Source of the DNA: Eledone cirrhosa
Lineage: Eukaryota
DNA length: 64,000 nucleotides
Assembly (NCBI GenBank): GCA_964016885.1
Contig: OZ024740.1
Location: 386,384,001 to 386,448,000 of the forward strand
Direction of reading: 5' to 3'
Shown here one piece after another: positions 6,817 through 48,865 of this stretch. A model generated the notes under the pieces. That model made no database searches and was not told where the DNA came from. It saw only the letters and a list, made by a program, of their open reading frames with translations. A program made the position numbers and the translations under genes. Within the stretch, counting starts at the first letter, position 1. Each line of letters starts with the position of its first letter.

Positions 6817-6844
<28 letters not shown>

Positions 6845-6845
<1 letters not shown>

Positions 6846-16013: not shown

Positions 16014-16329
16014 CACACACACACACACACATATGACTCTGTAGCTTGTTTAGAACATACAAAGGAATATTATATGATGAAGCCTACTACAATAACAATA
16101 ACGTTCATCACCTGATCTCATTGGAATTATTTCTTCAAGACTACATGGAGTTCTAACAACATTATAGGCCTCACCATAAACAAGTTGATATTAGTACAAA
16201 CATATATATATATATATTAAAAGAAGAAATGTCTGTGTAGTTATTTATTTATTCATTTATTTATTTAATCAATTTAAACATCTGTATAGAGTTGGTAAGC
16301 CATGAGAGACTGGGAAAGGTATTTAATGC

Positions 16330-16487
16330 TTCTTATTAAACAAAAGTGAGAGAAGGGGGGAGGGGAGAATAGAATGAAAATTAAAGGAGGCAAAAAACAA
16401 AAGAAGCAAGGTAAGAAAAGGGTGAAAAACAAGGACAGCTGTATAGCAACTAAAAGTTTCTGTTTTCATACTCTCCATGTACTAGAA
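16330..16487 (-). mobile_element. 3' extremity of the I-group LINE, separated from its body by the hAT/satellite insertion
   Basis: GGTGAAAAACAAGGACAGC...AAAGTTTCTGTT...CCATGTACTAGAA aligns with the uninterrupted copy at 1476-1548. Confidence 0.75.
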
Positions 16488-19400
16488 CAGGGGTTGGCAA
16501 CCTTTTGAAGTGTGTGGGCCACATAGCTATGGAGTGTCTCGTCAGTGGGCCACATTGCTATGGAGTGTCTTCTCAGTGGGCCACATAGCTATGGAGTGTC
16601 TTGTCAGTGGGCCACATTGCTATGGAGTGTCTTGTCAGTGGGCCACATTGCTATGGAGTGTCTTGTCAGTGGGCCACATTGCTACGGAGTGTCTCGTCAG
16701 TGGGCCACATTGCTATGGAGTGTCTTGTCAGTGGGCCACATTGCTATGGAGTGTCTTGTCAGTGGGCCACATTGCTATGGAGTGCCTCGTCAGTGGGCCA
16801 CATAGCTTTGGAGTGTCTTGTCAGTGGGCCACATTGCTAAGGAGTGTCTTGTCAGTGGGCCACATTGCTATGGAGTGTCTCGTCAGTGGGCCACATAGCA
16901 ATGGAGTGTCTTGTCAGTGGGCCACATTGCTATGGAGTGTCTTGTCAGTGGGCCACATTGCTATGTAGTGTCTTGTCAGTGGGCCACATTGCTATGGAGT
17001 GTCTTGTCAGTGGGCCACATAGCTATGGAGTGTCTTGTCAGTGGGCCACATAGCTATGGAGTGTCTTGTCAGTGGGCCACGTAGCTATGGAGTGTCTCGT
17101 CAGTGAGCCACATTGCTATGGAGTGTCTTGTCAGTGGGCCACATTGCTATGGAGTGTCTTGTCAGTGGGCCACATTGCTATGGAGTGTCTTGTCAGTGGG
17201 CCACATTGCTATGGAGTGTCTTGTCAGTGGGCCACATTGCCGTGGAGTGTCTTGTCAGTGGGCCACATTGCTGTGGAGTGTCTTGTCAGTGGGCCACATA
17301 GCTATGGAGTGTCTTGTCAGTGGGCCACATTGCTATGGAGTGTCTCGTCAGTGGGCCACATTGCTATGGAGTGTCTTGTCAGTGGGCCACATTGCTATGT
17401 AGTGTCTTGTCAGTGGGCCACATTGCTATGGAGTGTCTTGTCAGTGGGCCACATTGCTATGGAGTGTCTTGTCAGTGGGCCACATTGCTATGGAGTGTCT
17501 CGTCAGTGGGCCACATAGCAATGGAGTGTCTTGTCAGTGGGCCACATTGCTATGGAGTGTCTTGTCAGTGGGCCACATTGCTATGTAGTGTCTTGTCAGT
17601 GGGCCACATTGCTATGGAGTGTCTTGTCAGTGGGCCACATAGCTATGGAGTGTCTTGTCAGTGGGCCACATTGCTATGGAGTGTCTTGTCAGTGGGCCAC
17701 ATAGCAATGGAGTGTCTCGTTAGTGGGCCACATAGCAATGGAGTGTCTTGTCAGTGGGCCACATTGCTATGGAGTGTCTCGTCAGTGGGCCACATTGCTG
17801 TGGAGTGTCTTGTCAGTGGGCCACATTGCTATGGAGTGTCTTGTCAGTGGGCCACATAGCTATGGAGTGTCTTGTCAGTGGGCCACATTGCTATGGAGTG
17901 TCTTGTCAGTGGGCCACATTGCTATGGAGTGTCTTGTCAGTGGGCCACATTGCTATGGAGTGTCTTGTCAGTGGGCCACATTGCTATGGAGTGTCTCGTC
18001 AGTGGGCCACATAGCAATGGAGTGTCTTGTCAGTGGGCCACATTGCTATGGAGTGTCTTGTCAGTGGGCCACATTGCTATGTAGTGTCTTGTCAGTGGGC
18101 CACATTGCTATGGAGTGTCTTGTCAGTGGGCCACATAGCTATGGAGTGTCTTGTCAGTGGGCCACATTGCTATGGAGTGTCTTGTCAGTGGGCCACATAG
18201 CAATGGAGTGTCTCGTTAGTGGGCCACATAGCAATGGAGTGTCTTGTCAGTGGGCCACATTGCTATGGAGTGTCTCGTCAGTGGGCCACATTGCTGTGGA
18301 GTGTCTTGTCAGTGGGCCACATTGCTATGGAGTGTCTTGTCAGTGGGCCACATAGCTATGGAGTGTCTTGTCAGTGGGCCACATTGCTATGGAGTGTCTT
18401 GTCAGTGGGCCACATTGCTATGGAGTGTCTTGTCAGTGGGCCACATTGCTGTGGAGTGTCTTGTCAGTGGGCCACATTGCTATGGAGTGTCTTGTCAGTG
18501 GGCCACATTGCTGTGGAGTGTCTTGTCAGTGGGCCACATTGCTATGGAGTGTCTTGTCAGTGGGCCACATTGCTATGGAGTGTCTTGTCAGTGGGCCACA
18601 TTGCTGTGGAGTGTCTTGTCAGTGGGACACATTGCTATGGAGTGTCTTGTCAGTGGGCCACATTGCTGTGGAGTGTCTTGTCAGTGGGCCACATTGCTAT
18701 GGAGTGTCTTGTCAGTGGGCCACATTGCTGTGGAGTGTCTTGTCATTGGGCCACATTGCTGTGGAGTGTCTTGTCAGTGGTCCACATTGCTATGGAGTGT
18801 CTTGTCAGTGGGCTACATAGCTATGGAGTGTCTTGTCAGTGGGCCACATTGCCATGGAGTGTCTTGTCAGTGGGTCACATTGCTATGGAGTGTCTTGTCA
18901 GTCGGCCACATTGCTATGGAGTGTCTTGTCAGTGGGTCACATTGCTATGGAGTGTCTTGTCAGTGGGCCACATAGCAATGGAGCGTCTTGTCAGTGGGCC
19001 ACATAGCAATGGAGTGTCTTGTCATTGGGCCACATAGCTATGGAGTGTCTTGTCAGTGGGCCACATTGCTATGGAGTGTCTTGTCAGTGGGCCACATTGC
19101 TGTGGAGTGTCTTGTCAGTGGGCCACATTGCTATGGAGTGTCTTGTCAGTGGGCCACATAGCAATGGAGTGTCTTGTCAGTGGGCCACATTGCTATGGAG
19201 TGTCTTGTCAGTGGGCCACATAGCAATGGAGCGTCTTGTCAGTGGGCCACATTGCTATGGAGTGTCTTGTCAGTGGGCCACATTGGTATGGAGTGTCTTG
19301 TCAGTGGGCCACATTGCTATGGAGTGTCTTGTCAGTGGGCCACATTGCTATGCAGTGTCTTGTCAGTGGGCGACATAGCTATGGAGTGTCTTGTCAGTGG

Positions 19401-22400
19401 TCCACATAGCTATGGAGTGTCTTGTCAGTGGGCCACATTGCTATGGAGTGTCTTGTCAGTGGGCCACATTGCTGTGGAGTGTCTTGTCAGTGGGCCACAT
19501 TGCTTATGGAGTGTCTTGTCAGTGGGCCACATAGCTATGGAGTGTCTTGTCAGTGGGCCACATTGCTATGGAGTGTCTTGTCAGTGGGCCACATTGCTAT
19601 GGAGTGTCTTGTCAGTGGGCCACATTGCTATGTAGTTTCTTGTCAGTGGTCCACATAGCAATGGAGTGTCTTGTCAGTGGGCCACATAGCAATGGAGCGT
19701 CTTGTCATTGGGCCACATAGCTATGGAGTGTCTTGTCAGTGGGCCACATTGGTATGGAGTGTCTCGTCAGTGGGCCACATAGCTGTGGAGTGTCTTGTCA
19801 GTGGGCCACATTGCTATGGAGTGTCTTGTCAGTGGGCCACATTGGTATGGAGTGTCTTGTCAGTGGGTCACATTGCTATGGAGTGTCTTGTCAGTGGGCC
19901 ACATTGCTATGCAGTGTCTTGTCAGTGGGCGACATAGCTATGGAGTGTCTTGTCAGTGGGCCACATAGCTATGGAGTGTCTCGTCAGTGGGCCACATTGC
20001 TATGGAGTGTCTTGTCAGCGGGCCACATTGCTATGGAGTGTCTTGTCAGTGGGCCACATTGCTATGGAGTGTCTCGTTAGTGGGCCACATAGCAATGGAG
20101 TGTCTTGTCAGTGGGCCACATTGCTATGGAGTGTCTCGTCAGTGGGCCACATTGCTGTGGAGTGTCTTGTCAGTGGGCCACATTGCTATGTAGTGTCTTG
20201 TCAGTGGGCCACATTGCTATGGAGTGTCTTGTCAGTGGGCCACATAGCTATGGAGTGTCTTGTCAGTGGGCCACATTGCTATGGAGTGTCTTGTCAGTGG
20301 GCCACATTGCTATGGAGTGTCTTGTCAGTGGGCCACATTGCTATGGAGTGTCTTGTCAGTGGGCCACATTGCTGTGGAGTGTCTTGTCAGTGGGCCACAT
20401 TGCTATGGAGTGTCTTGTCAGTGGGCCACATTGCTGTGGAGTGTCTTGTCAGTGGGCCACATTGCTATGGAGTGTCTTGTCAGTGGGCCACATTGCTATG
20501 GAGTGTCTTGTCAGTGGGCCACATTGCTGTGGAGTGTCTTGTCAGTGAGCCACATTGCTATGGAGTGTCTTGTCAGTGGGCCACATTGCTGTGGAGTGTC
20601 TTGTCAGTGGGCCACAGTGCTATGGAGTGTCTTGTCAGTGGGCCACATTGCTATGGAGTGTCTTGTCAGTGGGCCACATTGCTGTGGAGTGTCTTGTCAG
20701 TGGGCCACATTGCTATGGAGTGTCTTGTCAGTGGGCTACATAGCTATGGAGTGTCTTCTCAGTGGGCCACATTGCCATGGAGTGTCTTGTCAGTGGGTCA
20801 CATTGCTATGGAGTGTCTTGTCAGTGGGCCACATTGCTATGGAGTGTCTTGTCAGTGGGTCACATTGCTATGGAGTGTCTTGTCAGTGGGCCACATAGCT
20901 ATGGAGTGTCTTGTCAGTGGGCCACATTGCTGTGGAGTGTCTTGTCAGTGGGCCACATTGCTATGGAGTGTCTTGTCAGTGGGCTACATAGCTATGGAGT
21001 GTCTTCTCAGTGGGCCACATTGCCATGGAGTGTCTTGTCAGTGGGTCACATTGCTATGGAGTGTCTTGTCAGTGGGCCACATTGCTATGGAGTGTCTTGT
21101 CAGTGGGTCACATTGCTATGGAGTGTCTTGTCAGTGGGCCACATAGCAATGGAGCGTCTTGTCAGTGGGCCACATAGCAATGGAGTGTCTTGTCATTGGG
21201 CCACATAGCTATGGAGTGTCTTGTCAGAGGGCCACGTTGCTATGGAGTGTCTTGTCAGTGGGCCACATTGCTGTGGAGTGTCTTGTCAGTGGGCCACATT
21301 GCTGTGGAGTGTCTTGTCAGTGGGCCACATTGGTATGGAGTGTCTTGTCAGTGGGCCACATTGCTATGGAGTGTCTTGTCAGTGGGCCACATAGCAATGG
21401 AGTGTCTTGTCAGTGGGCCACATTGCTATGTAGTTTCTTGTCAGTGGGCCACATAGCAATGGAGCGTCTTGTCAGTGGGCCACATTGCTATGGAGTGTCT
21501 TGTCAGTGGGCCACATTGGTATGGAGTGTCTTGTCAGTGGGCCACATTGCTATGGAGTGTCTTGTCATTGGGCCACATTGCTATGCAGTGTCTTGTCAGT
21601 GGGCGACATAGCTATGGAGTGTCTTGTCAGTGGTCCACATAGCTATGGAGTGTCTTGTCAGTGGGTCACATTGCTATGGAGTGTCTCGTCAGTGGGCCAC
21701 ATTGCTGTGGAGTGTCTTGTCAGGGGGCCACATAGCTATGGAGTGTCTTGTCAGTGGGCCACATTGCTGTGGAGTGTCTTGTCAGTGGGCCACATTGCTT
21801 ATGGAGTGTCTTGTCAGTGGGCCACATAGCTATGGAGTGTCTTGTCAGTGGGCCACATTGCTATTGAGTGTCTTGTCAGTGGGCCACATTGCTATGGAGT
21901 GTCTTGTCAGTGGGCCACATTGCTATGGAGTGTCTTGTCAGTGGGCCACATTGCTATGTAGTTTCTTGTCAGTGGTCCACATAGCAATGGAGTGTCTTGT
22001 CAGTGGGCCACATAGCAATGGAGCGTCTTGTCAGTGGGCCACATAGCTATGGAGTGTCTTGTCAGTGGGCCACATTGGTATGGAGTGTCTCGTCAGTGGG
22101 CCACATTGCTATGGAGTGTCTTGTCAGTGGGCCATATTGCTATGGAGTGTCTTGTCAGTGGGCCACATTGCTATGGAGTGTCTTGTCAGTGGGCCACATA
22201 GCTATGGAGTGTCTTGTCAGTGGGCCACATAGCTATGGAGTGTCTTGTCAGTGGGCCACATTGCTATGGAGTGTCTTGTCAGTGGGCCACATTGCTATGG
22301 AGTGTCTTGTCAGTGGGCCACATTGCTATGGAGTGTCGTGTCAGTGGGCCACATTGCTATGGAGTGTCTTGTCAGTGGGCCACATTGCTATGAAGTGTCT

Positions 22401-25400
22401 CGTCAGTGGGCCACATTGCTATGGAGTGTCTTGTCAGTGGGCCACATAGCTATGGAGTGTCTTGTCAGTGGGCCACATTGCTATGGAGTGTCTCATCAGT
22501 GGGCCACATTGCTATGGAGTGTCTTGTCAGTGGGCCACATAGCTATGGAGTGTCTTGTCAGTGGGCCACATAGCTATGGAGTGTCTTGTCAGTGGGCCAC
22601 ATTGCTATGGAGTGTCTTGTCAGTGGGCCACATTGCTATGGAGTGTCTTGTCAGTGGGCCACATTGCTATGGAGTGTCTTGTTAGTGGGCCACATTGCTA
22701 TGGAGTGTCTTGTCAGTGGGCCACATTGCTATGGAGTGTCTTGTCAGTGGGCCACATTGCTATGGAGTGTCTTGTCAGTGGGCCACATTGCTATGGAGTG
22801 TCTTGTCAGTGGGCCACATAGCTATGGAGTGTCTTGTCAGTGGGCCACATTGCTATGGAGTGTCTTGTCAGTGGGCCACATAGCTATGGAGTGTCATGTC
22901 AGTGGGCCACATTGCTATGCAGTGTCTTGTCAGTGGGCCACATTGATATGGAGTGTCTTGTCAGTGGGCCACATAGCTATGGAGTGTCTCGTCAGTGGGC
23001 CACATTGCTATGGAGTGTCTTGTCAGTGGGCCACATAGCAATGGAGCGTCTTGTCAGTGGGCCACATAGCAATGGAGTGTCTTGTCAGTGGGCCACATAG
23101 CTATGGAGTGTCTTGTCAGTGGGCCACATTGCTATGGAGTGTCTTGTCAGTGGGCCACATTGCTATGGAGTGTCTTGTCAGTGGGCCACGTAGCTATGCA
23201 GTGTCTTGTCAGTGGGTCACATTGCTATGGAGTGTCTTGTCAGTGGGCCACATTGCTATGGAGTGTCTTGTCAGTGGGCCACATTGCTGTGGAGTGTCTT
23301 GAGAGTGGGCCACATAGCTATGGAGTGTCTTGTCAGTGGGCCACATTGCTATGGAGTGTCTTGTCAGTGGGTCACATTGCTATGGAGTGTCTTGTCAGTG
23401 GGCCACATTGCTATGGAGTGTCTTGTCAGTGGGCCACATTGCTATGGAGTGTCTTGTCAGTGGGCCACATTGCTGTGGAGTGTCTTGTCTTTGGGCCACA
23501 TTGCTATGGAGTGTCTTGTCAGTGGGCCACATTGCTATGGAGTGTCTTGTCAGTGGGCCACATTGCTATGGAGTGTCATGTCAGTGGGCCACATTGCTAT
23601 GGAGTGTCTTGTCAGTGGGCCACATTGCTATGGAGTGTCTTGTCAGTGGGCCACATTGCTATGGAGTGTCTTGTCAGTGGGCCACATTGCCGTGGAGTGT
23701 CTTGTCAGTGGGCCACATTGCTGTGGAGTGTCTTGTCAGTGGGCCACATAGCTATGGAGTGTCTTGTCAGTGGGCCACATTGCTATGGAGTGTCTCGTCA
23801 GTGGGCCACATTGCTATGGAGTGTCTCGTCAGTGGGCCACATTGCTATGGAGTGTCTTTTCAGTGGGCCACATAGCTATGGAGTGTCTTGTCAGTGGGCC
23901 ACATTGCTATGGAGTGTCTTGTCAGTGGGCCACATTGCTGTGGAGTGTCTTGTCAGTGGGCCACATTGCTATGGAGTGTCTTGTCAGTGGGCCACATTGC
24001 TGTGGAGTGTCTTGTCAGTGGGCCACATTGCTATGGAGTGTCTTGTCAGTGGGCCACATAGCAATGGAGTGTCTTGTCAGTGGGCCACATAGCTATGGAG
24101 TGTCTTGTCAGTGGGCCACATTGCTATGGAGTGTCTTGTCAGTGGGCCACATTGCTGTGGAGTGTCTTGTCAGTGGGCCACATTGCTATGGAGTGTCTTG
24201 TCAGTGGGCCACATTGCTATGGAGTGTCTTGTCAGTGGGCCACATTGCTATGGAGTGTCTTGTCAGTGGGCCACATTGCTATGGAGTGTCTTGTCAGTGG
24301 GCCACATTGCTGTGGAGTGTCTTGTCAGTGGGCCACATTGCTGTGGAGTGTCTTGTCAGTGGGCCACATTGCTATGGAGTGTCTTGTCAGTGGGCCACAT
24401 TGCTGTGGAGTGTCTTGTCAGTGGGCCACATTGCTATGGAGTGTCTTGTCAGTGGGCTACATAGCTATGGAGTGTCTTGTCAGTGGGCCACATTGCTATG
24501 GAGTGTCTTGTCAGTGGGTCACATTGCTATGGAGTGTCTTGTCAGTGGGCCACATTCTTATGGAGTGTCTTGTCAGTGGGTCACATTGCTATGGAGTGTC
24601 TTGTCAGTGGGTCACATTGCTATGGAGTGTCTAGTCAGTGGGCCACATTGCTATGGAGTGTCTTGTCAGTGGGCCACATTGCTACGGAGTGTCTTGTCAG
24701 TGGGCCACATTGCTATGGAGTGTCTTGTCAGTGGGCCACATTGCTGTGGAGTGTCCTGTCAGTGGGCCACATAGCTATGGAGTGTCTTGTCAGTGGGCCA
24801 CATGGCTGTGGAGTGTCTTGTCAGTGGGCCACATAGCTATGGAGTGTCTTGTCAGTGGGCCACATTGCTGTGGAGTGTCTTGTCAGTGGGCCACATTGCT
24901 ATGGAGTGTCTTGTCAGTGGGCCACATTGCTATGGAGTGTCTTGTCAGTGGGCCACATAGCAATGGAGCGTCTTGTCAGTGGGCCACATAGCAATGGAGT
25001 GTCTTGTCATTGGGCCACATAGCTATGGAGTGTCTTGTCAGTGGGCCACATTGCTATGGAGTGTCTTGTCAGTGGGCCACATTGCTGTGGAGTGTCTTGT
25101 CAGTGGGCCACATTGCTATGGAGTGTCTTGTCAGTGGGCCACATAGCAATGGAGTGTCTTGTCAGTGGGCCACATTGCTATATAGTTTCTTGTCAGTGGG
25201 CCACATAGCAATGGAGCGTCTTGTCAGTGGGCCACATTGCTATGGAGTGTCTTGTCAGTGGGCCACATTGGTATGGAGTGTCTTGTCAGTGGGCCACATT
25301 GCTATGGAGTGTCTTGTCAGTGGGCCACATTGCTATGTAGTGTCTTGTCAGTGGGCGACATAGCTATGGAGTGTCTTGTCAGTGGTCCACATAGCTATGG

Positions 25401-28400
25401 AGTGTCTTGTCAGTGGGCCACATTGCTATGGAGTGTCTCGTCAGTGTGCCACATTGCTGTGGAGTGTCTTGTCAGTGGGCCACATAGCTATGGAGTGTCT
25501 TGTCAGTGGGCCACATTGCTGTGGAGTGTCTTGTCAGTGGGCCACATTGCTTATGGAGTGTCTTGTCAGTGGGCCACATAGCTATAGAGTGTCTTGTCAG
25601 TGGGCCACATTGCTATGGAGTGTCTTGTCAGTGGGCCACATTGCTATGGAGTGTCTTGTCAGTGGGCCACATTGCTATGTAGTTTCTTGTCAGTGGTCCA
25701 CATAGCAATGGAGTGTCTTGTCAGTGGGCCACATAGCAATGGAGCGTCTTGTCAGTGGGCCACATTGCTATGGAGTGTCTTGTCAGTGGGCCACATTGGT
25801 ATGGAGTGTCTCGTCAGTGGGCCACATTGCTGTGGAGTGCCTTGTCAGTGGGCCACATTGCTATGGAGTGTCTTGTCAGTGGGCCACATTGGTATGGAGT
25901 GTCTTGTCAGTGGGCCACATAGCTATAGAGTGTCTTGTCAGTGGGCCACATTGCTATGGAGTGTCTTGTCAGTGGGCCACATTGGTATGGAGTGTCTTGT
26001 CAGTGGGCCACATATCTATAGAGTGTCTCGTCAGTGGGCCACATTGCTGTGGAGTGTCTTGTCAGTGGGCCACATTGCTATGGAGTGTCTTGTCAGTGGG
26101 CCACATTGGTATGGAGTGTCTTGTCAGTGGGCCACATTGCTATGGAGTGTCTTGTCAGTGGGCCACATTGCTATGGAGTGTCTCGTCAGTGGGCCACATT
26201 GCTATGGAGTGTCTTGTCAGTGGGCCACATTGCTATGGAGTGTCTTGTCAGTGGGCCACATAGCTATGGAGTGTCTTGTCAGTGGGCCACATAGCTATGG
26301 AGTGTCTTGTCAGTGGGCCACATTGCTATGGAGTGTCTTGTCAGTGGGCCACATTGCTATGGAGTGTCTTGTCAGTGGGCCACATTGCTATGTAGTGTCT
26401 TGTCGGTGGGCCACATTGCTATGGAGTGTCTTGTCAGTGGGCCACATTGCTATGGAGTGTCTCGTCAGTGGGCCACATTGCTATGGAGTGTCTTGTCAGT
26501 GGGCCACATAGCTATGGAGTGTCTTGTCAGTGGGCCACATTGCTATGGAGTGTCTCGTCAGTGGGCCACATTGCTATGGAGTGTCTTGTCAGTGGGCCAC
26601 ATAGCTATGGAGTGTCTTGTCAGTGGGCCACATAGCTATGGAGTGTCTTGTCAGTGGGCCACATTGCTATGGAGTGTCTTGTCAGTGGGCCACATTGCTA
26701 TGGAGTGTCTTGTCAGTGGGCCACATTGCTATGGAGTGTCTTGTCAGTGGGCCACATAGCTATGGAGTGTCTTGTCAGTGGGCCACATTGCTATGGAGTG
26801 TCTTGTCAGTGGGCCACATAGCTATGGAGTGTCTTGTCAGTGGGCCACATTGCTATGGAGTGTCTTGTCAGTGGGCCACATTGATATGGAGTGTCTTGTC
26901 AGTGGGCCACATAGCTATGGAGTGTCTCGTCAGTGGGCCACATTGCTATGGAGTGTCTTGTCAGTGGGCCACATAGCAATGGAGCGTCTTGTCAGTGGGC
27001 CACATAGCAATGGAGTGTCTTGTCAGTGGGCCACATAGCTATGGAGTGTCTTGTCAGTGGGCCACATTGCTATGGAGTGTCTTGTCAGTGGGCCACATTG
27101 CTATGGAGTGTCTTGTCAGTGGGCCACGTAGCTATGGAGTGTCTTGTCAGTGGGTCACATTGCTATGGAGTGTCTTGTCAGTGGGCCACATTGCTATGGA
27201 GTGTCTTGTCAGTGGGCCACATTGCTATGGAGTGACTTGTCAGTGGGCCACATTGCTGTGGAGTGTCTTGTCAGTGGGCCACATAGCTATGGAGTGTCTT
27301 GTCAGTGGGCCACATTGCTATGGAGTGTCTTGTCAGTGGGTCACATTGCTATGGAGTGTCTTGTCAGTGGGCCACATTGCTATGGAGTGTCTTGTCAGTG
27401 GGCCACATTGCTATGGAGTGTCTTGTCAGTGGGCCACATTGCTATGGAGTGTCTTGTCAGTGGGTCACATTGCTGTGGAGTGTCTTGTCAGTGGGCCACA
27501 TTGCTATGGAGTGTCTTGTCAGTGGGCCACATAAATATGGAGTGTCTTGTCAGTGGGCCACATAGCTACGGAGTGTCTTGTCAGTGGGCCACATAGCTAT
27601 GGAGTGTCTTGTCAGTGGGCCACATTGCTATGGAGTTTCTTGTCAGTGGGCCACATAGCTATGGAGTGTCTTGTCAGTGGGCCACATTGCTATGGAGTGT
27701 CTCGTCAGTGGGCCACATTGCTATGGAGTGTCTTGTCAGTGGGCCACATAGCTATGGAGTGTCTTGTCAGTGGGCCACATAGCTATGGAGTGTCTTGTCA
27801 GTGGGCCACATAGCTATGGAGTGTCTTGTCAGTGGGCCACATAGCTATGGAGTGTCTTGTCAGTGGGCCACATAGCTATGGAGTGTCTTGTCAGTGGGCC
27901 ACATTGCTGTGGAGTGTCTTGTCAGTGGGCCACATTGCTATGGAGTGTCTTGTCAGTGGGCTACATAGCTATGGAGTGTCTTCTCAGTGGGCCACATTGC
28001 CATGGAGTGTCTTGTCAGTGGGTCACATTGCTATGGAGTGTCTTGTCAGTGGGCCACATTGCTATGGAGTGTCTTGTCAGTGGGTCACATTGCTATGGAG
28101 TGTCTTGTCAGTGGGCCACATAGCAATGGAGCGTCTTGTCAGTGGGCCACATAGCAATGGAGTGTCTTGTCATTGGGCCACATAGCTATGGAGTGTCTTG
28201 TCAGAGGGCCACGTTGCTATGGAGTGTCTTGTCAGTGGGCCACATTGCTGTGGAGTGTCTTGTCAGTGGGCCACATTGCTGTGGAGTGTCTTGTCAGTGG
28301 GCCACATTGGTATGGAGTGTCTTGTCAGTGGGCCACATTGCTATGGAGTGTCTTGTCAGTGGGCCACATAGCAATGGAGTGTCTTGTCAGTGGGCCACAT

Positions 28401-37400: not shown

Positions 37401-40400
37401 TTGCTATGGAGTGTCTTGTCAGTGGGCCACATAGCTATGGAGTGTCTTGTCAGTGGGCCACATTGCTATGGAGTGTCTTGTCAGTGGGCCACATTGCTAT
37501 GGAGTGTCTTGTCAGTGGGCCACATAGCTATGGAGTATCTTGTCAGTGGGCCACATAGCAATGGAGCGTCTTGTCAGTGGGCCACATAGCAATGGAGTGT
37601 CTTGTCATTGGGCCACATAGCTATGGAGTGTCTTGTCAGTGGGCCACATTGCTATGGAGTGTCTTGTCAGTGGGCCACATTGCTGTGGAGTGTCTTGTCA
37701 GTGGGCCACATTGCTATGGAGTATCTTGTCATTGGGCCACATAGCAATGGAGTGTCTTGTCAGTGGGCCACATTGCTATGTAGTTTCTTGTCAGTGGGCC
37801 ACATAGCAATGGAGCGTCTTGTCAGTGGGCCACATTGCTATGGAGTGTCTTGTCAGTGGGCCACATTGGTATGGAGTGTCTTGTCAGTGGGCCACATTGC
37901 TATGGAGTGTCTTGTCAGTGGGCCACATTGCTATGCAGTGTCTTGTCAGTGGGCGACATAGCTATGGAGTGTCTTGTCAGTGGTCCACATAGCTATGGCG
38001 TGTCTTGTCAGTGGGCCACATTGCTATGGAATGTCTCGTCAGTGGGCCACATTGCTGTGGAGTGTCTTGTCAGTGGGCCACATAGCTATGGAGTGTCTTG
38101 TCAGTGGGCCACATTTCTGTGGAGTGTCTTGTCAGTGGGCCACATTGCTATGGAGTGTCTTGTCAGTGGGCCACATTGCTATGGAGTGTCTTGTCAGTGG
38201 GCCACATTGCTATGGAGTGTCTTGTCAGTGGGTCACATTGCTGTGGAGTGTCTTGTCAGTGGGCCACATAGCTATGGAGTGTCTTGTCAGTGGGCCACAT
38301 TGCTATGGAGTGTCTTGTCAGTGGGTCACATTGCTATGGAGTGTCTTGTCAGTGGGCCACATTGCTATGCAGTGTCTTGTCAGTGGGCGACATAGCTATG
38401 GAGTGTCTTGTCAGTGGTCCACATAGCTATGGAGTGTCTTGTCAGTGGGCCACATTACTATGGAATGTCTCGTCAGTGGGCCACATTGCTATGTAGTTTC
38501 TTGTCAGTGGTCCACATAGCAATGATAGCTATGGAGTGTCTTGTCAGTGGGCCACATTGCTATGGAATGTCTCGTCAGTGGGCCACATTGCTGTGGAGTG
38601 TCTTGTCAGTGGGCCACATAGCTATGGAGTGTCTTGTCAGTGGGCCAGATTGCTGTGGAGTGTCTTGTCAGTGGGCCACATTGCTATGGAGTGTCTTGTC
38701 AGTGGGCCACATAGCTATGGAGTGTCTTGTCAGTGGGCCACATTGCTATGGAGTGTCTTGTCAGTGGGCCACATTGCTATGGAGTGTCTTGTCAGTGGGC
38801 CACATTACTATGTAGTTTCTTGTCAGTGGTCCACATAGCAATGGAGTGTCTTGTCAGTGGGCCACATAGCAATGGAGTGTCTTGTCAGTGGGCCACATAG
38901 CAATGGAGCGTCTTGTCAGTGGGCCACATAGCTATGGAGTGTCTTGTCAGTTTGGCCACATTGGTGTGGAGTGTCTTGTCAGTGGGCCACATTGCTATGG
39001 AGTGTCTTGTCAGTGGGCCACATTGCTATGCAGTGTCTTGTCAGTGGGCGACATAGCTATGGAGTGTCTTGTCAGTGGGCCACATAGCTATGGAGTGTCT
39101 CGTCAGTGGGCCACATTGCTATGGAGTGTCTTGTCAGTGGGCCACATTGCTATGGAGTGTCTTGTCAGTGGGCCACATTGCTATGGAGTGTCTCGTCAGT
39201 GGGCCACATTGCTATGGAGTGTCTTGTCAGTGGGCCACATAGCAATGGAGCGTCTTGTCAGTGGGCCACATAGCTATGGAGTGTCTTGTCAGTGGGCCAC
39301 ATTGCTATGGAGTGTCTCGTCAGTGGGCCACATTGCTATGGAGTGTCTTGTCAGTGGGCCACATAGCTATGGAGTGTCTTGTCAGTGGGCCACATAGCTA
39401 TGGAGTGTCTTGTCAGTGGGCCACATTGCTATGGAGTGTCTTGTCAGTGGGCCACATTGCTATGGAGTGTCTTGTCAGTGGCCACATTGCTATGGAGTGT
39501 CTTGTCAGTGGGCCACATTGCTATGGAGTGTCTTGTCAGTGGGCCACATTGCTATGGAGTGTCTTGTCAGTGGGCCACATTGCTATGGAGTGTCTTGTCA
39601 GTGGGCCACATTGCTATGGAGTGTCTTGTCAGTGGGCCACATTGCTATGGAGTGTCTTGTCAGTGGGCCACATAGCTATGGAGTGTCTTGTCAGTGGGCC
39701 ACATTGCTATGGAGTGTCTTGTCAGTGGGCCACATAGCTATGGAGTGTCTTGTCAGTGGGCCACATTGCTATGGAGTGTCTTGTCAGTGGGCCACATTGA
39801 TATGGAGTTTCTTGTCAATGGGCCACATAGCTATGGAGTATCTCGTCAGTGGGCCACATTGCTATGGAGTGTCTTGTCAGTGGGCCACATTGCTATGGAG
39901 TGTCTTGTCAGTGGGCCACATTGCTATGCAGTGTCTTGTCAGTGGGCGACATAGCTATGGAGTGTCTTGTCAGTGGTCCACATAGCTATGGCGTGTCTTG
40001 TCAGTGGGCCACATTGCTATGGAATGTCTCGTCAGTGGGCCACATTGCTGTGGAGTGTCTTGTCAGTGGGCCACATAGCTATGGAGTGTCTTGTCAGTGG
40101 GCCACATTGCTGTGGAGTGTCTTGTCAGTGGGCCACATTGCTATGGAGTGTCTTGTCAGTGGGCCACATAGCTATGGAGTGTCTTGTCAGTGGGCCACAT
40201 TGCTATGGAGTGTCTTGTCAGTGGGCCACATTGCTATGGAGTGTCTTGTCAGTGGGCCACATTGCTATGTAGTTTCTTGTCAGTGGTCCACATAGCAATG
40301 GAGTGTCTTGTCAGTGGGCCACGTTGGTATGGAGTGTCTCGTCAGTGGACCACATTGCTGTGGAGTGTCTTGTCAGTGGGCCACATTGCTATGGAGTGTC

Positions 40401-43400
40401 TTGTCAGTGGGCCACATTGGTATGGAGTGTCTTGTCAGTTTGGCCACATTGGTATGGAGTGTCTTGTCAGTGGGCCACATTGCTATGGAGTGTCTTGTCA
40501 GTGGGCCACATTGCTATGGAGTGTCTTGTCAGTGGGCCACATTGCTATGGAGTGTCTTGTCAGTGGGTCACATTGCTGTGGAGTGTCTTGTCAGTGGGCC
40601 ACATAGCTATGGAGTGTCTTGTCAGTGGGCCACATTGCTATGGAGTGTCTTGTCAGTGGGTCACATTGCTATGGAGTGTCTTGTCAGTGGGCCACATTGC
40701 TATGCAGTGTCTTGTCAGTGGGCGACATAGCTATGGAGTGTCTTGTCAGTGGTCCACATAGCTATGGAGTGTCTTGTCAGTGGGCCACATTGCTATGGAA
40801 TGTCTCGTCAGTGGGCCACATTGCTATGTAGTTTCTTGTCAGTGGTCCACATAGCAATGATAGCTATGGAGTGTCTTGTCAGTGGGCCACATTGCTATGG
40901 AATGTCTCGTCAGTGGGCCACATTGCTGTGGAGTGTCTTGTCAGTGGGCCACATAGCTATGGAGTGTCTTGTCAGTGGGCCACATTGCTATGGAGTGTCT
41001 TGTCAGTGGGCCACATTGCTATGCAGTGTCTTGTCAGTGGGCGACATAGCTATGGAGTGTCTTGTCAGTGGTCCACATAGCTATGGCGTGTCTTGTCAGT
41101 GGGCCACATTGCTATGGAATGTCTCGTCAGTGGGCCACATTGCTGTGGAGTGTCTTGTCAGTGGGCCACATAGCTATGGAGTGTCTTGTCAGTGGGCCAC
41201 ATTGCTATGGAGTGTCTTGTCAGTGGGCCACATAGCTATGGAGTGTCTTGTCAGTGGGCCACATTGCTATGGAGTGTCTTGTCAGTGGGCCACATAGCTA
41301 TGGAGTGTCTTGTCAGTGGGCCACATTGCTATGGAGTGTCTTGTCAGTGGGCCACATTGCTATGGAGTGTCTTGTCAGTGGGCCACATTGCTATGCAGTG
41401 TCTTGTCAGTGGGCGACATAGCTATGGAGTGTCTTGTCAGTGGTCCACATAGCTATGGCGTGTCTTGTCAGTGGGCCACATTGCTATGGAATGTCTCGTC
41501 AGTGGGCCACATTGCTGTGGAGTGTCTTGTCAGTGGGCCACATAGCTATGGAGTGTCTTGTCAGTGGGCCACATTGCTGTGGAGTGTCTTGTCAGTGGGC
41601 CACATTGCTATGGAGTGTCTTGTCAGTGGGCCACATAGCTATGGAGTGTCTTGTCAGTGGGCCACATTGCTATGGAGTGTCTTGTCAGTGGGCCACATTG
41701 CTATGGAGTGTCTTGTCAGTGGGCCACATAGCTATGGAGTATCTTGTCAGTGGGCCACATAGCAATGGAGCGTCTTGTCAGTGGGCCACATAGCAATGGA
41801 GTGTCTTGTCATTGGGCCACATAGCTATGGAGTGTCTTGTCAGTGGGCCACATTGCTATGGAGTGTCTTGTCAGTGGGCCACATTGCTGTGGAGTGTCTT
41901 GTCAGTGGGCCACATTGCTATGGAGTATCTTGTCATTGGGCCACATAGCAATGGAGTGTCTTGTCAGTGGGCCACATTGCTATGTAGTTTCTTGTCAGTG
42001 GGCCACATAGCAATGGAGCGTCTTGTCAGTGGGCCACATTGCTATGGAGTGTCTTGTCAGTGGGCCACATTGGTATGGAGTGTCTTGTCAGTGGGCCACA
42101 TTGCTATGGAGTGTCTTGTCAGTGGGCCACATTGCTATGCAGTGTCTTGTCAGTGGGCGACATAGCTATGGAGTGTCTTGTCAGTGGTCCACATAGCTAT
42201 GGCGTGTCTTGTCAGTGGGCCACATTGCTATGGAATGTCTCGTCAGTGGGCCACATTGCTGTGGAGTGTCTTGTCAGTGGGCCACATAGCTATGGAGTGT
42301 CTTGTCAGTGGGCCACATTTCTGTGGAGTGTCTTGTCAGTGGGCCACATTGCTATGGAGTGTCTTGTCAGTGGGCCACATTGCTATGGAGTGTCTTGTCA
42401 GTGGGCCACATTGCTATGGAGTGTCTTGTCAGTGGGTCACATTGCTGTGGAGTGTCTTGTCAGTGGGCCACATAGCTATGGAGTGTCTTGTCAGTGGGCC
42501 ACATTGCTATGGAGTGTCTTGTCAGTGGGTCACATTGATATGGAGTGTCTTGTCAGTGGGCCACATTGCTATGCAGTGTCTTGTCAGTGGGCGACATAGC
42601 TATGGAGTGTCTTGTCAGTGGTCCACATAGCTATGGAGTGTCTTGTCAGTGGGCCACATTGCTATGGAATGTCTCGTCAGTGGGCCACATTGCTATGTAG
42701 TTTCTTGTCAGTGGTCCACATAGCAATGATAGCTATGGAGTGTCTTGTCAGTGGGCCACATTGCTATGGAATGTCTCGTCAGTGGGCCACATTGCTGTGG
42801 AGTGTCTTGTCAGTGGGCCACATAGCTATGGAGTGTCTTGTCAGTGGGCCAGATTGCTGTGGAGTGTCTTGTCAGTGGGCCACATTGCTATGGAGTGTCT
42901 TGTCAGTGGGCCACATAGCTATGGAGTGTCTTGTCAGTGGGCCACATTGCTATGGAGTGTCTTGTCAGTGGGCCACATTGCTATGGAGTGTCTTGTCAGT
43001 GGGCCACATTGCTATGTAGTTTCTTGTCAGTGGTCCACATAGCAATGGAGTGTCTTGTCAGTGGGCCACATAGCAATGGAGTGTCTTGTCAGTGGGCCAC
43101 ATAGCAATGGAGCGTCTTGTCAGTGGGCCACATAGCTATGGAGTGTCTTGTCAGTTTGGCCACATTGGTGTGGAGTGTCTTGTCAGTGGGCCACATTGCT
43201 ATGGAGTGTCTTGTCAGTGGGCCACATTGCTATGCAGTGTCTTGTCAGTGGGCGACATAGCTATGGAGTGTCTTGTCAGTGGGCCACATAGCTATGGAGT
43301 GTCTCGTCAGTGGGCCACATTGCTATGGAGTGTCTTGTCAGTGGGCCACATTGCTATGGAGTGTCTTGTCAGTGGGCCACATTGCTATGGAGTGTCTTGT

Positions 43401-46400
43401 CAGTGGGCCACATAGCAATGGAGCGTCTTGTCAGTGGGCCACATAGCTATGGAGTGTCTTGTCAGTGGGCCACATTGCTATGGAGTGTCTCGTCAGTGGG
43501 CCACATTGCTATGGAGTGTCTTGTCAGTGGGCCACATAGCTATGGAGTGTCTTGTCAGTGGGCCACATAGCTATGGAGTGTCTTGTCAGTGGGCCACATT
43601 GCTATGGAGTGTCTTGTCAGTGGGCCACATTGCTATGGAGTGTCTTGTCAGTGGCCACATTGCTATGGAGTGTCTTGTCAGTGGGCCACATTGCTATGGA
43701 GTGTCTTGTCAGTGGGCCACATTGCTATGGAGTGTCTTGTCAGTGGGCCACATTGCTATGGAGTGTCTTGTCAGTGGGCCACATTGCTATGGAGTGTCTT
43801 GTCAGTGGGCCACATTGCTATGGAGTGTCTTGTCAGTGGGCCACATAGCTATGGAGTGTCTTGTCAGTGGGCCACATTGTTATGGAGTGTCTTGTCAGTG
43901 GGCCACATAGCTATGGAGTGTCTTGTCAGTGGGCCACATTGCTATGGAGTGTCTTGTCAGTGGGCCACATTGATATGGAGTGTCTTGTCAATGGGCCACA
44001 TAGCTATGGAGTATCTCGTCAGTGGGCCACATTGCTATGGAGTGTCTTGTCAGTGGGCCACATTGCTATGGAGTGTCTTGTCAGTGGGCCACATTGCTAT
44101 GCAGTGTCTTGTCAGTGGGCGACATAGCTATGGAGTGTCTTGTCAGTGGTCCACATAGCTATGGCGTGTCTTGTCAGTGGGCCACATTGCTATGGAATGT
44201 CTCGTCAGTGGGCCACATTGCTGTGGAGTGTCTTGTCAGTGGGCCACATAGCTATGGAGTGTCTTGTCAGTGGGCCACATTGCTGTGGAGTGTCTTGTCA
44301 GTGGGCCACATTGCTATGGAGTGTCTTGTCAGTGGGCCACATAGCTATGGAGTGTCTTGTCAGTGGGCCACATTGCTATGGAGTGTCTTGTCAGTGGGCC
44401 ACATTGCTATGGAGTGTCTTGTCAGTGGGCCACATTGCTATGTAGTTTCTTGTCAGTGGTCCACATAGCAATGGAGTGTCTTGTCAGTGGGCCACGTTGG
44501 TATGGAGTGTCTCGTCAGTGGACCACATTGCTGTGGAGTGTCTTGTCAGTGGGCCACATTGCTATGGAGTGTCTTGTCAGTGGGCCACATTGGTATGGAG
44601 TGTCTTGTCAGTTTGGCCACATTGGTATGGAGTGTCTTGTCAGTGGGCCACATTGCTATGGAGTGTCTTGTCAGTGGGCCACATTGCTATGGAGTGTCTT
44701 GTCAGTGGGCCACATTGCTATGGAGTGTCTTGTCAGTGGGTCACATTGCTGTGGAGTGTCTTGTCAGTGGGCCACATAGCTATGGAGTGTCTTGTCAGTG
44801 GGCCACATTGCTATGGAGTGTCTTGTCAGTGGGTCACATTGCTATGGAGTGTCTTGTCAGTGGGCCACATTGCTATGCAGTGTCTTGTCAGTGGGCGACA
44901 TAGCTATGGAGTGTCTTGTCAGTGGTCCACATAGCTATGGAGTGTCTTGTCAGTGGGCCACATTGCTATGGAATGTCTCGTCAGTGGGCCACATTGCTAT
45001 GTAGTTTCTTGTCAGTGGTCCACATAGCAATGATAGCTATGGAGTGTCTTGTCAGTGGGCCACATTGCTATGGAATGTCTCGTCAGTGGGCCACATTGCT
45101 GTGGAGTGTCTTGTCAGTGGGCCACATAGCTATGGAGTGTCTTGTCAGTGGGCCACATTGCTGTGGAGTGTCTTGTCAGTGGGCCACATTGCTATGGAGT
45201 GTCTTGTCAGTGGGCCACATAGCTATGGAGTGTCTTGTCAGTGGGCCACATTGCTATGGAGTGTCTTGTCAGTGGGCCACATTGCTATGGAGTGTCTTGT
45301 CAGTGGGCCACATTGCTATGTAGTTTCTTGTCAGTGGTCCACATAGCAATGGAGTGTCTTGTCAGTGGGCCACATAGCAATGGAGTGTCTTGTCAGTGGG
45401 CCACATAGCAATGGAGCGTCTTGTCAGTGGGCCACATAGCTATGGAGTGTCTTGTCAGTTTGGCCACATTGGTATGGAGTGTCTTGTCAGTGGACCACAT
45501 TGCTATGGAGTGTCTCGTCAGTGGGCCACATTGCTATGGAGTGTCTTGTCAGTGGGCCACATAGCAATGGAGCGTCTTGTCAGTGGGCCACATAGCTATG
45601 GAGTGTCTTTTCAGTGGGCCACATTGCTATGGAGTGTCTCGTCAGTGGGCCACATTGCTATGGAGTGTCTTGTCAGTGGGCCACATAGCTATGGAGTGTC
45701 TTGTCAGTGGGCCACATAGCTATGGAGTGTCTTGTCAGTGGGCCACATTGCTATGGAGTGTCTTGTCAGTGGGCCACATTGCTATGGAGTGTCTTGTCAG
45801 TGGCCACATTGCTATGGAGTGTCTTGTCAGTGGGCCACATTGCTATGGAGTGTCTTGTCAGTGGGCCACATTGCTATGGAGTGTCTTGTCAGTGGGCCAC
45901 ATTGCTATGGAGTGTCTTGTCAGTGGGCCACATTGCTATGGAGTGTCTTGTCAGTGGGCCACATTGCTATGGAGTGTCTTGTCAGTGGGCCACATAGCTA
46001 TGGAGTGTCTTGTCAGTGGGCCACATTGCTATGGAGTGTCTTGTCAGTGGGCCACATAGCTATGGAGTGTCTTGTCAGTGGGCCACATTGCTATGGAGTG
46101 TCTTGTCAGTGGGCCACATTGATATGGAGTGTCTTGTCAGTGGGCCACATAGCTATGGTGTATCTCGTCAGTGGGCCACATTGCTATGGAGTGTCTTGTC
46201 AGTGGGCCACATTGCTATGGAGTGTCTTGTCAGTGGGCCACATTGCTATGGAGTGTCTTGTCAGTGGGCCACATAGCAATGGAGCATCTTGTCAGTGGGC
46301 GACATAGCAATGGAGTGTCATGTCAGTGGGCCACATAGCTATGGAGTGTCTTGTCAGTGGGCCACATTGCTATGGAGTGTCTTGTCAGTGGGCCACATTG

Positions 46401-48324
46401 CTATGGAGTGTCTTGTCAGTGGGCCACATAGCTGTAGAGTGTCTTGTCAGTGGGTCACATTGCTATGGAGTGTCTTGTCAGTGGGCCACATTGCTATGGA
46501 GTGTCTTGTCAGTGGGCCACATTGCTATGGAGTGTCTTGTCAGTGGGCCACCTTGCTGTGGAGTGTCTTGTCAGTGGGCCACATAGCTATGGAGTGTCTT
46601 GTCAGTGGGCCACATTGCTATGGAGTGTCTTGTCAGTGGGTCACATTGGTATGGAGTGTCTTGTCAGTGGGCCACATTGCTATGGAGTGTCTTGTCAGTG
46701 GGTCACATTGCTATGGAGTGTCTTGTCAGTGGGCCACATTGCTATGGAGTGTCTTGTCAGTGGACCACATTGCTGTGGAGTGTCTTGTCTTTGGGCCACA
46801 TTGCTATGGAGTGTCTTCTCAGTGGGCCACATTACTATGGAGTGTCTTGTCAGTGGGCCACATAGCAATGGAGTGTCTTGTCAGTGTGCCACATAGCTAT
46901 GGAGTGTCTTGTCTGTGGGTCACATTGCTATGGAGTGTCTTGTCAGTGGGCCACATTGCTATGGAGTGTCTTGTCAGTGGGCCACATTGCTATGGAGTGT
47001 CTTGTCAGTGGGCCACATTGCTATGGAGTGTCTTGTCAGTGGGTCACATTGCTGTGGAGTGTCTTGTCAGTGGGCCACATAGCTATGGAGTGTCTTGTCA
47101 GTGGGCCACATTGCTATGAAGTGTCTTGTCAGTGGGTCACATAAATATGGAGTGTCTTGTCAGTGGGCCACATTGCTATGGAGTGTCTTGTCAGTGGGTC
47201 ACATTGCTATGGAGTGTCTTGTCAGTGGGCCACATTTCTATGGAGTGTCTTGTCAGTGGGCCACATTGCTATGGAGTGTCTTGTCAGTGGGCCACATAGC
47301 TATGTAGTGTTTTATCAGTGGGCCACATTGCTATGGAGTGTCTTGTCAGTGGGCCACATTGCTATGGAGTGTCATGTCAGTGGGCCACATTGCTGTGGAG
47401 TGTCTTGTCAGTGGGCCACATACCTATGGAGTGTCTTGTCAGTGGGCCACATTGCTATGGAGTGTCTTGTCAGTGGGCCACATTGCTATGGAGTGTCTTG
47501 TTTAGAGGGCCACATAGCAATGTAGTTTCTTGTCAGTGCGCCACATTGCTATGCAGTGTCTTGTTTAGAGGGCCACATAGCAATGTAGTGTCTTGTCAGT
47601 GGGCCACATTGGTATGGAGTGTCTTGTCAGTGGGCCACATTGCTATGCAGTGTCTTGTTTAGAGGGCCACATAGCAATGTAGTGTCTTGTCAGTGGGCCA
47701 TGATATCAAATAAGTAATAAGAACATATGTAAAAACAAATACAGTAATATGATAAAATACTATGACATTTTTAATAAACTGTGACAAAACTACAATACCT
47801 GGCAGTGTATTTAGATCAGGGTTGCCATTTGTTTCATAATTTACTTCTAATAATGCTGAACACTTTTAATATAGAAAAATAAATAAATATTGATTATTAT
47901 TGAATACAGACACTCACAGATGTTTTACTACCAGACAGCAAATTCAAATAAAACATTTTGAGGATGAAATGAAATAACTGTTTGCCAGACACACTGACTT
48001 GTTTTAGGTAAGTCTGGGTTATTCCACATCCCTGCCATACACATACTATGATGTACGTATATACATGGATAAACACACAGATAGTCTCCTTGACTTCGAT
48101 GTCTGATTATTCTATCTGTCTGAGTTTCATTGTTTGTAACTGTGACACAAAATATTACATTCAGCTAAGTGGGTCATGCGTTCTCTAGTCGGTATTCTAA
48201 TCCAAAATAATTCAGATCATTTTTTCAGGGATCGCTTAGCCTAAGATTGAAACCTGTTGGCAGGCCGGACAAAAATCCTTCATGGGCCACATCCAGCCCG
48301 TAGGCCAGGTGTTGTCGACCCCTC
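16488..48324. mobile_element. Non-autonomous hAT (Charlie/Buster-type) transposon, 31,837 bp, enclosing the satellite
   Basis: Left TIR CAGGGGTTGGCAAC (16488-16501); right TIR GTTGTCGACCCCTC (48311-48324; 11/14 to the reverse complement). 8-bp TSD TACTAGAA (16480-16487) / TACTTGAA (48325-48332). Subterminal GGCCGGAC..TGGGCCACATCCAGCCCGTAGGCC. No transposase. Confidence 0.88.
16514..47700. repeat. 31-bp tandem satellite, about 1,000 copies, consensus GGAGTGTCTTGTCAGTGGGCCACATTGCTAT
   Basis: Direct reading: head-to-tail, single orientation, mostly 0-2 substitutions per unit, no spacers, no TE insertions seen. 31,187 bp / 31 is about 1,006. Confidence 0.99.
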
Positions 48325-48865
48325 TACTTGAAGATCATGTTTATGGTTAGTAGATCCTTGACAATACATTGTATTTGTAATTTTAGTATTTTTTTAAAGA
48401 CCAACTTCAAAATATTCGCTCTCTTAGACTGGTAGTTTTTACATTAGAACAAATAGTGCCATAAAGTTTCTGAATAGTCTCCACAAGAACAGAAGTGATT
48501 CTATTTGACCTGTTCTTGATAAAATATAGTTTATGGATATATGGCTGATTCAAAGCCAACATAGCCCTTGTTTATTAACCTTATTCAGTGCCTGATACAT
48601 TTTAGATATTGACAAATCTAGCTGAGATAACAGCGGATTGGAATTTGATAGCTTATCTCTAGATTCCTTCCCTAAATTTTGCCACCCTTAACTAATTATA
48701 TTTTTGTTTAATAATTTGATTTGCTATAGATTTAGAATGTACTCTATATCTATTATTTTCCTTTGTACTCCCTCTTTTGCTAAGTTATCTGCTTTCCTGT
48801 ATCCCTTAATATCTATAATATATGGCCAGGTATCCAATAATCGTTACTTGTTTATTATTTTCTGA

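Follow-up and report, generated by a model that had tools for sequence, protein, structure and literature searches.

Organization of the locus

The window – the whole 64-kb stretch of Eledone cirrhosa DNA analysed here – contains a satellite array of approximately 1,004 units of 31 bp (positions 16514..47700; this and all following features are on the + strand), framed by the two ends of a DNA transposon. TRF reports positions 16514-47700 with period 31, 1004.3 copies and 93% matches, and the units diverge on average by 3.6% from the array consensus and by 6.3% from one another. The array has the structural properties of a satellite, being long and head-to-tail, homogenised internally, and containing higher-order duplications. 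Two nested duplications, 4-7 kb long and with identity >99.8%, are evident. In the first (20867..34168), the segment 20867-27532 is repeated at 27844-34168, with offsets of 6,977, 6,667 and 6,636 bp and four mismatches across three matched blocks; in the second (36969..45162), 36969-40989 is repeated at 41173-45162, with offsets of 4,204 and 4,173 bp and five mismatches. Five 40-bp variant units are located in the half of the array that holds the second duplication. None of six folds showed an unusual DNA structure (z -1.15 to 1.14) that might cause instability. Inversion about a central palindrome was considered as a mechanism and is unsupported; a single change separates either unit variant from the palindromic form.

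The element spans 16488..48324, an assembled length of 31,837 bp and approximately 45 times that of a one-unit copy. Its left end (16488..16513) consists of a 15-bp terminal inverted repeat (TIR) plus 11 bp, and is homologous to the 3′ end of the parent transposon, an orientation taken from related transposase copies. It is preceded by an 8-bp target-site duplication (TSD) with TA at positions 4-5 (16480..16487), and by the left half of an older dispersed host repeat (16280..16487), whose paralogues run straight into sequence like 48325-48620. To the right of the array is a family body of type A (47701..48324; 93% identical to the family consensus), ending in a decayed TIR (48310..48324) that differs from the family consensus at three of 15 positions, the terminal base among them. 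The left TIR and the reverse complement of the right TIR are identical at 11 of 15 positions; the TIR is intact in other copies. The right TSD (48325..48332) matches the left at seven of eight positions, and paralogue comparison identifies 48325..48620 as the right half of the host repeat. In the family alignment, a subterminal stretch (48287..48294) is inverted relative to most copies; the inversion is common to L003 and L115 and absent from the neighbouring copy L073.

These positions bear out all of the coordinates in an earlier note on this DNA, which had placed the ends at 16488 and 48324. Counted from the first TIR base, the array begins after 26 bp. The note's 624-bp body (47701..48324) has the proposed length but is not unique, as it is the body of the family. 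The 64-kb window contains no tRNA genes, and among flanking ORFs of at least 110 aa, inspected by eye, only retroelement fragments and no host-gene exon were recognised.

A single insertion into an older repeat

The left and right flanks are adjacent at 26 of 38 host-repeat loci, many with a single 8-mer (two places were fetched twice among the 38, and the flank-adjacent loci comprise 24 distinct ones). Because the site is unoccupied in these paralogues, with the 8-mer present once, one insertion event accounts for both ends of the 32-kb element, as the earlier note had claimed. Unrelated family copies have TSDs matching with at most one mismatch in only 17 of 1,190 cross pairs, and the left TSD of the 32-kb element matches none of 34 other right TSDs.

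The empty sites also bear on whether the 32-kb span is chimeric, joined from two copies, or was inflated by the assembly. Two blocks, of 2,332 and 1,022 bp, recur without a mismatch, the array length is that of the assembly, and a 240-kb relative has no matching TSD, all of which would fit such an artefact. However, the two flanks were formerly adjacent, the duplicated blocks differ by unit-sized indels as well as mismatches, and the short-read contigs X4 and X5, possibly from the assembled individual, join the left flank, TIR and first units at approximately 100% identity. We regard an artefact of this kind as very unlikely; an assembly error might change the length by some kb, but would leave the array in place. 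A contig from a related species (run X1, one contig) has the flank joined to the TIR up to position 16524.

Relationship to Buster-like hAT transposons

The family belongs to the hAT superfamily, with 8-bp TSDs, short TIRs and a link to a transposase. TSDs match with at most one mismatch in 17 of 35 pairs and at most two in 26 of 35, misplacements being counted as misses, and follow the pattern nnnTAnnn (T at position 4 in 33 of 35, A at position 5 in 34 of 35). This is the target consensus given for Buster and Charlie elements, e.g. TcBuster, in the accessible text of PMC3499496; together with the 8-bp TSD and short TIRs it suggests a Buster-like placement, although unlike for those elements no intact parent was found, and the likeness comes from TSD, TIRs and transposase fragments. 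The fragments belong to a related family that has the same TIR and encodes a broken transposase, and match the Spin-doc zinc finger, DUF4371 and, weakly, the hAT dimerisation domain (PF18658, E 4e-10, over the cut-off; PF14291, E 2e-5, and PF05699, E 0.004, both under it). Presumably this transposase resembles SPIN/GTF2IRD2. Its longest open frames are at most 540 aa among the best 30 matches, and a PDB search with one fragment gave no match. Searches for an intact parent by protein and DNA recovered only this broken cousin family and a more distant one, and a PF14291 scan (150 matches, 30 loci read) revealed no family ends within 1.5 kb. One match 2.3 kb from a family copy was considered as parent, but lies outside that copy.

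Stretch 47716..47953 is 67% identical to non-coding DNA upstream of the transposase in the related broken autonomous family, and type B bodies are 78% identical to that family's 3′ end. Stop codons interrupt the type A body in each of the three frames on the transposase-sense strand; members are short and, on that strand, non-coding, with TIRs and TSDs, as are MITEs. Because the bodies are varied deletion derivatives, of types A and B, the term 'non-autonomous hAT' is preferable.

A homologous single unit is present in all 25 left ends of the related autonomous family, and the unit is therefore native to the transposon. This argues against capture of a pre-existing satellite by a MITE, or its insertion into one, the route suggested for miDNA4. 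A 206-unit array (L302 with L318 and L319) has no recognisable MITE end in the 30 kb fetched, and the consensus units of the three largest arrays are similar, both of which capture would explain; however, when arrays were chosen solely by their unit, 22 of 23 proved to be in register with the end or body of a MITE, and the likeness of the large arrays lies mostly at former CpG sites. Capture is thus extremely unlikely. CpG loss correlates with the passage of arrays from tens to thousands of units.

Unit numbers and growth in place

We compared 60 sampled insertions and the 23 unit-picked loci. The sample is partial (40 of 341 first-look body candidates were scored), the exact motifs used for picking favour less decayed copies, and the number and sizes of large arrays are lower bounds. 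Among the 60 independent insertions, 38 have 0-2 units and 22 have at least four, with bodies of approximately 0.4-0.9 kb; most copies are about 0.7 kb with few units. The prediction that internal tandem amplification enlarged a roughly 0.7-kb non-autonomous hAT about 45-fold while leaving both ends in place thus stands, as does the expectation of further expanded copies. The expansion proposed as a snapshot of satellite birth is real, but is not a lone case, being one of a graded series (22 of 60 expanded). Arrays have their own consensus units, and sizes of 31 kb here and 21.5 kb and ~240 kb elsewhere. One array of 691 units carries a perfect TSD. The ~240-kb array (~7,750 units), located on the same contig at 407,167,099-407,407,656, is approximately eight times longer than that of the 32-kb element; its TSD is unmatched, and its flank is unique, so there is no paralogous empty site to compare.

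Unit number changed after insertion: L107 and L108 have a common TSD and flanks, yet contain 46 and 8 units, respectively. Another insertion has been amplified with its flanks, ten records holding 31-125 units and one more at least 141; a search of this block for rDNA and RNA genes gave only three marginal tRNA-like matches. The family tree is star-like, with copies on average 8.5% from the consensus and four of 26 inner branches starred; divergence is thus greater among family copies than among the units of the 32-kb element (3.6%) or its internal duplications (above 99.8% identity). Growth in place follows from these observations, because TSD-sharing copies differ in units, the family is an old star, and the array contains nested duplications.

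It is probable that the 31-bp subterminal unit grew to approximately 1,000 copies after one old insertion of a Buster-like non-autonomous hAT, likely from a two-unit master by slippage or unequal exchange, with neighbouring interiors likely gene-converted. At position 13 of the unit, two-unit copies have T then A in seven of ten cases, A then T in none, and are uniform in three, and 17 of 41 arrays mix both states. Extra units occur in none of 25 copies of the one-unit cousin family, a control chosen by transposase homology rather than by ends, versus 32 of 60 in this family (Fisher p 7e-7). The mobile seed was thus likely a two-unit master, although several masters are possible because single-unit copies (25) outnumber two-unit copies (10). 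In a 29-row tree the label 'expanded' is clustered (three changes versus 7.2 when shuffled), with near-copies driving the clustering, and its starred branches may be compatible with one origin of the expanded copies. After insertion, the two-unit master would seed an array at the subterminal unit, slippage and unequal exchange would extend it, and the resulting 32-kb form would be immobile.

Similarity of neighbouring copies

The type A interior of the 32-kb element is 96.5% identical to that of a copy with 8 units, which lies 61 kb away and is inverted relative to it. More generally, copies at most 4 Mb apart on one chromosome can have near-identical interiors but differing ends and TSDs, and in three near pairs the partners also have array variants in common. 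Eight same-contig pairs less than 5 Mb apart rank 1, 2, 3, 4, 5, 9, 12 and 509 in body similarity (1,231 alignable pairs among 83 copies), and of 820 array pairs, the three with the greatest similarity each lie on one chromosome, at most 2.3 Mb apart. When the 32-kb element is compared with L073, shared and differing sites stand at 30:13 in the interior, versus 2:12 over the terminal 64 bp (p 0.0004).

hAT elements are known to hop locally, and expanded copies might have transposed with their arrays, often locally, so that near pairs are local hops. In agreement with this, similarity is greatest in near pairs whose TSDs differ, and expanded copies cluster on the tree. However, a recent hop would carry the ends along, whereas here the ends are dissimilar despite interiors that are 96-100% identical. 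Internal deletions or right ends distinguish the partners of L200/L293 and L301/L308, and L200 and L293 have their arrays in common but differ in TSDs and flanks. Moreover, the terminal base has been lost from the right TIR of the 32-kb element, those copies of the related transposase that were found are broken, and a Buster element lost much of its activity when the cargo was increased from 5.1 to 8.5 kb (PMC12637253). Transposition of the arrays is thus unlikely, and no sign of giant arrays transposing was seen among the sampled copies. The earlier idea of the element as a vehicle for dispersing satellites applies to the one- or two-unit seed alone; no case of an expanded copy transposing together with its array was seen.

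Because neighbours that share array variants differ in ends and TSDs, we favour conversion over transposition, and ectopic gene conversion is the likely cause of interior identity in near pairs; neighbouring family copies would swap interiors, array variants included. Conversion is not array-specific, because the single-unit pair L134/L003 shows it; the near pair L101/L102 does not. Nor did it supply the present variants of the 32-kb element's array, because the comparison with the converted neighbour's units ranks only 706 of 820. Tentatively, dead hAT copies may serve as genome-wide docking sites, arrays spreading by conversion over distances up to megabases without transposase, and CpG-free variants giving rise to TIR-framed satellites of 20-240 kb, hundreds-fold more expanded than in a relative. 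This would represent transposase-free satellite spread, and the copies, from a single unit up to an array of possibly centromeric scale, would form a testable series.

Comparison with known systems

The origin of satellites and their arrival at new loci are usually inferred from end points. With TIR, body and TSD kept, the start state, size and neighbours can be read here in dozens of independent replicates spanning 1 to ~7,750 units, so that one genome provides a graded series of satellites being born. Three questions become testable: how an array of tens of units comes to have thousands, whether the threshold for expansion is a two-unit seed (the one-unit cousin family is unexpanded), and whether arrays reach other loci by transposition or through conversion among copies already resident there.

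Satellites born from MITEs are already known, and what this case adds is a hAT host, preservation of the ends at such a scale, and the pattern of conversion; the comparisons here draw on the accessible portions of the cited papers. In miDNA4 of Xenopus tropicalis (Scalvenzi and Pollet 2014, as described in PMC9659126, PMC12628747 and PMC12054243), an internal unit is likewise single in most copies and arrayed in others, and short direct repeats are proposed to drive copy change. However, miDNA4 is a Tc1/mariner element with a presumed captured repeat, whereas here a hAT has a unit native to its end, and long miDNA4 arrays are expected to lose their ends, whereas arrays of 22-32 kb here retain TIRs and TSDs. 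DTC84, a MITE of the clam Donax trunculus (PMC3879986), is similarly a mollusc element, whose internal array consists of palindrome-containing unit variants in a set order, but has at most five units, is pearl-type and has an AA target, versus up to thousands of units and 8-bp TSDs here. Xmix/Xstir (Xenopus), Tetris TIR-220 and DINE-TR1 (Drosophila) are also satellites from part of a non-autonomous DNA transposon, but of superfamilies other than hAT, and the accessible part of a review table of transposon-derived satellites includes no hAT case. Non-allelic conversion of transposable elements depends on distance and identity, with an excess for Alu within 10 kb (PMC6598467); the pairs here are 38 kb to 3.6 Mb apart and, unlike in the conversion reported there, the putative tract can include a tandem array.

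An array within one hAT insertion

The window corresponds to C1:386,384,001–386,448,000 of a 3.0-Gb genome. Its 31-bp array (16514–47700; 1004.3 copies, 93% matches) follows a left terminal inverted repeat (TIR) starting at 16488 and leads directly into a 624-bp body, with 8-mers at 16480–16487 and 48325–48332 that differ at one base. The left and right flanks are parts of one older dispersed repeat, and are adjacent to each other in 26 of 38 loci of this host repeat (24 distinct places), many of which have the 8-mer only once where the flanks meet. These empty sites bear out the claim of an earlier note that paired ends and an 8-bp target site duplication (TSD) bracket the array in a single element. 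Both target sites were called in 35 family copies. Their two 8-mers match with at most one mismatch in 17 of these copies, versus 17 of 1,190 cross pairs, and have T at position 4 (33/35) and A at position 5 (34/35); T-A at these positions is the reported TcBuster consensus (PMC3499496). Contigs from two short-read runs (X4 and X5) run from the left flank through the TIR to the second unit, with 0–1 differences; they possibly derive from the assembled individual and are therefore not independent support. The window observation is real and well supported.

Unit number across the family

Family copies were gathered by searches with the body (30 of 40 matches read), a junction motif (54 matches, of which 30 were taken as loci; C26, C28 and block copies were fetched by other routes), a TIR motif (18/18 matches) and the second body type (30 of 43). 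The resulting 70 records correspond to 60 insertions after merging – of ten records that stem from a single insertion, amplified together with its flanks, and of L107 and L108, two loci with common TSD and flanks – and de-duplication, in which one duplicate of L116 was removed and L260, initially lost, was restored. A count of 31-bp units per copy was suggested as a check in the earlier note. Among the 60 sampled insertions, none is recognisable in 3, with exactly one in 25, two in 10, 4–54 in 18, 31 to >140 in the amplified block (one insertion), and >600 in three. The array on contig C6 has 691 units between TIRs and an 8/8 TSD. That at C1:407 Mb extends 240,558 bp from a left TIR to a type B body (the second body type) with right TIR, and samples from both ends and from the interior (three of 10 kb, nine of 1 kb) contain units throughout on a single strand; because its TSD is unmatched, it may combine two copies.

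In an independent test using the unit only, all 23 new loci among 150 matches listed of 345 were fetched; a clear left TIR is present in 16, an adjoining body in 20, both in 14, and at least one in 22. At the sole exception, L302 (C24:20.87 Mb), an array of 206 units passes into a retroelement fragment, with neither TIR nor body across 30 kb; it is read as a free-standing satellite stage.

Several loci have further rearrangements. L305 (C26:11.10 Mb; minus strand 7567–8786) contains a second tandem repeat of ~109 bp in at least 12 copies, composed of the right TIR and flank and adjoining a 58-unit array. L295 (C28:56.18 Mb) has the left end and flank four times, with 2–40 units each and no body, and a different tandem repeat after one array, and at L312 (C6:101.37 Mb) the array continues upstream in ~22-bp deletion variants of the unit. 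The insertion amplified with its flanks is on C16, C20, C22, C23 and C27 of assembly G000 (L061–L070, L192–L196, L363–L375), recurring every ~120–130 kb on C20 and often as a tandem pair. In the sampled block, fragments that resemble EGF-repeat exons are recognisable by eye, alongside many other minisatellites, and the block is likely a gene-family expansion; these regions also contain hAT-type open frames of 882–909 aa.

Growth in place and probable exchange between neighbors

Type A bodies, including that of the window, form a star tree at a mean of 8.5% from consensus (29 rows, without those <450 aligned bases or >700 bp and most block copies). Unit number varies within single insertions, with 46 versus 8 in L107/L108 and 31–125 in the amplified block records. 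Units of the window array are 3.6% from their own consensus, and its duplications of ~6.7 and ~4.2 kb have >99.8% identity with whole-unit differences between duplicates; unequal exchange or long slippage would leave such a mark. Given the decay of its right TIR, and the drop in Buster activity with 8.5-kb cargo (PMC12637253), the 32-kb form is likely immobile.

Comparison of 83 copies gave 1,231 pairs in which the first 170 bases of the body could be aligned at 110 positions or more. In similarity, the eight pairs that are no more than 5 Mb apart on one contig rank 1, 2, 3, 4, 5, 9, 12 and 509. The body of the window copy is 96.5% identical to that of an 8-unit copy located 61 kb away in inverted orientation, but their TSDs and last 64 bp differ (shared:differing sites 30:13 in the interior versus 2:12 in the last 64 bp, p 0.0004). 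L260 and L261, 2.3 Mb apart, share ~300 identical bp and a private unit variant, with unlike ends and TSDs, and L200 and L293, 38 kb apart, share array variants, with unlike deletions and flanks; L293 was picked with L200 as query and is its best match genome-wide. A recent transposition hop could yield similar neighbors, but does not fit these pairs, because a hop would carry the ends along and the ends differ. Gene conversion, known to depend on distance among transposable element copies (PMC6598467), fits the near-pair pattern. In array similarity, the top three of 820 pairs are near pairs; the remaining near pairs rank 19 to 706, with the window pair among the worst. Separately, L197 (C23) and L284 (C28) share a left target 8-mer and have 48 and 47 units, but are only 80% alike with no flank in common, apparently a coincidence.

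Origin of the unit

A cousin family with the same TIR encodes a transposase that is broken; it matches a Spin-doc zinc finger and, weakly, DUF4371 and the hAT dimerisation domain. Because the window body matches DNA upstream of the cousin transposase gene (67% identity, 259 columns) and type B bodies contain the 3′ end of that gene, the unit is located, by homology, at the 3′ end of the transposon. Searches of the genome by transposase profile, protein and DNA found no intact parent transposon. One cousin copy, L229 (C4:190.62 Mb), has a left-type end on both strands.

Two 8-bp direct repeats at a distance of 31 bp bound the unit, and all 25 of 25 cousin left ends (from 24 of 30 loci) contain one unit homologous to it. 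The cousins have the same direct repeats, yet only one unit; two or more are found in 0/25 cousins versus 32/60 insertions, the cousins being sampled differently. Unit position 13 is T then A in 7 of 10 two-unit copies and A then T in 0, is T in 14 and A in 11 single-unit copies, and is mixed in 17/41 arrays. All three patterns would be accounted for by a two-unit master, contracting in some copies to a single unit and expanding in others, and such a master was likely the mobile seed. Larger arrays have fewer CpG sites per unit (41 arrays, not all of them independent; Spearman -0.44, p 0.004), with <0.1 of 3 sites in the three largest versus 1.6 in single units. DNA folding revealed nothing unusual.

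Age and relation to known satellites

Summed contig depth of the unit is 120,000–161,000 in X4 and X5 versus 3–5 on single-copy flank, depth not being copy number, and 1,261–2,009 versus ~18 in X1, a run labeled as another species, in which diverged units would escape. This contrast hints that the expansion is lineage-specific and that more unit DNA exists than was located (roughly 12,000 units). Because one X1 contig connects flank with TIR, the window insertion may be older than the split from that species; a follow-up on X1 did not recover the join.

Satellite birth in non-autonomous DNA transposons is already known, as in miDNA4, Xmix/Xstir, Tetris, DINE-TR1 and pearl-type elements (PMC9659126, PMC12628747, PMC12054243) and DTC84 (PMC3879986). 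In the literature covered, mostly outside subscription papers, we found no account of this hAT family, no hAT-internal satellite of comparable size with both ends kept, and no report of arrays spreading between MITE copies via conversion. The main text of an octopus repeat paper has no satellite discussion, and the family may be in its supplementary library (PMC13282606). Added here are the scale, a series of replicates that keep both ends, and the pattern of conversion, which make questions of satellite birth and spread testable.

Elsewhere in the window, a fragmented non-LTR retroelement is at 54900–58400, where frames resembling an endonuclease and a reverse transcriptase are recognised by eye, with further reverse transcriptase-like fragments at 5200–7700 and 63100–63750.
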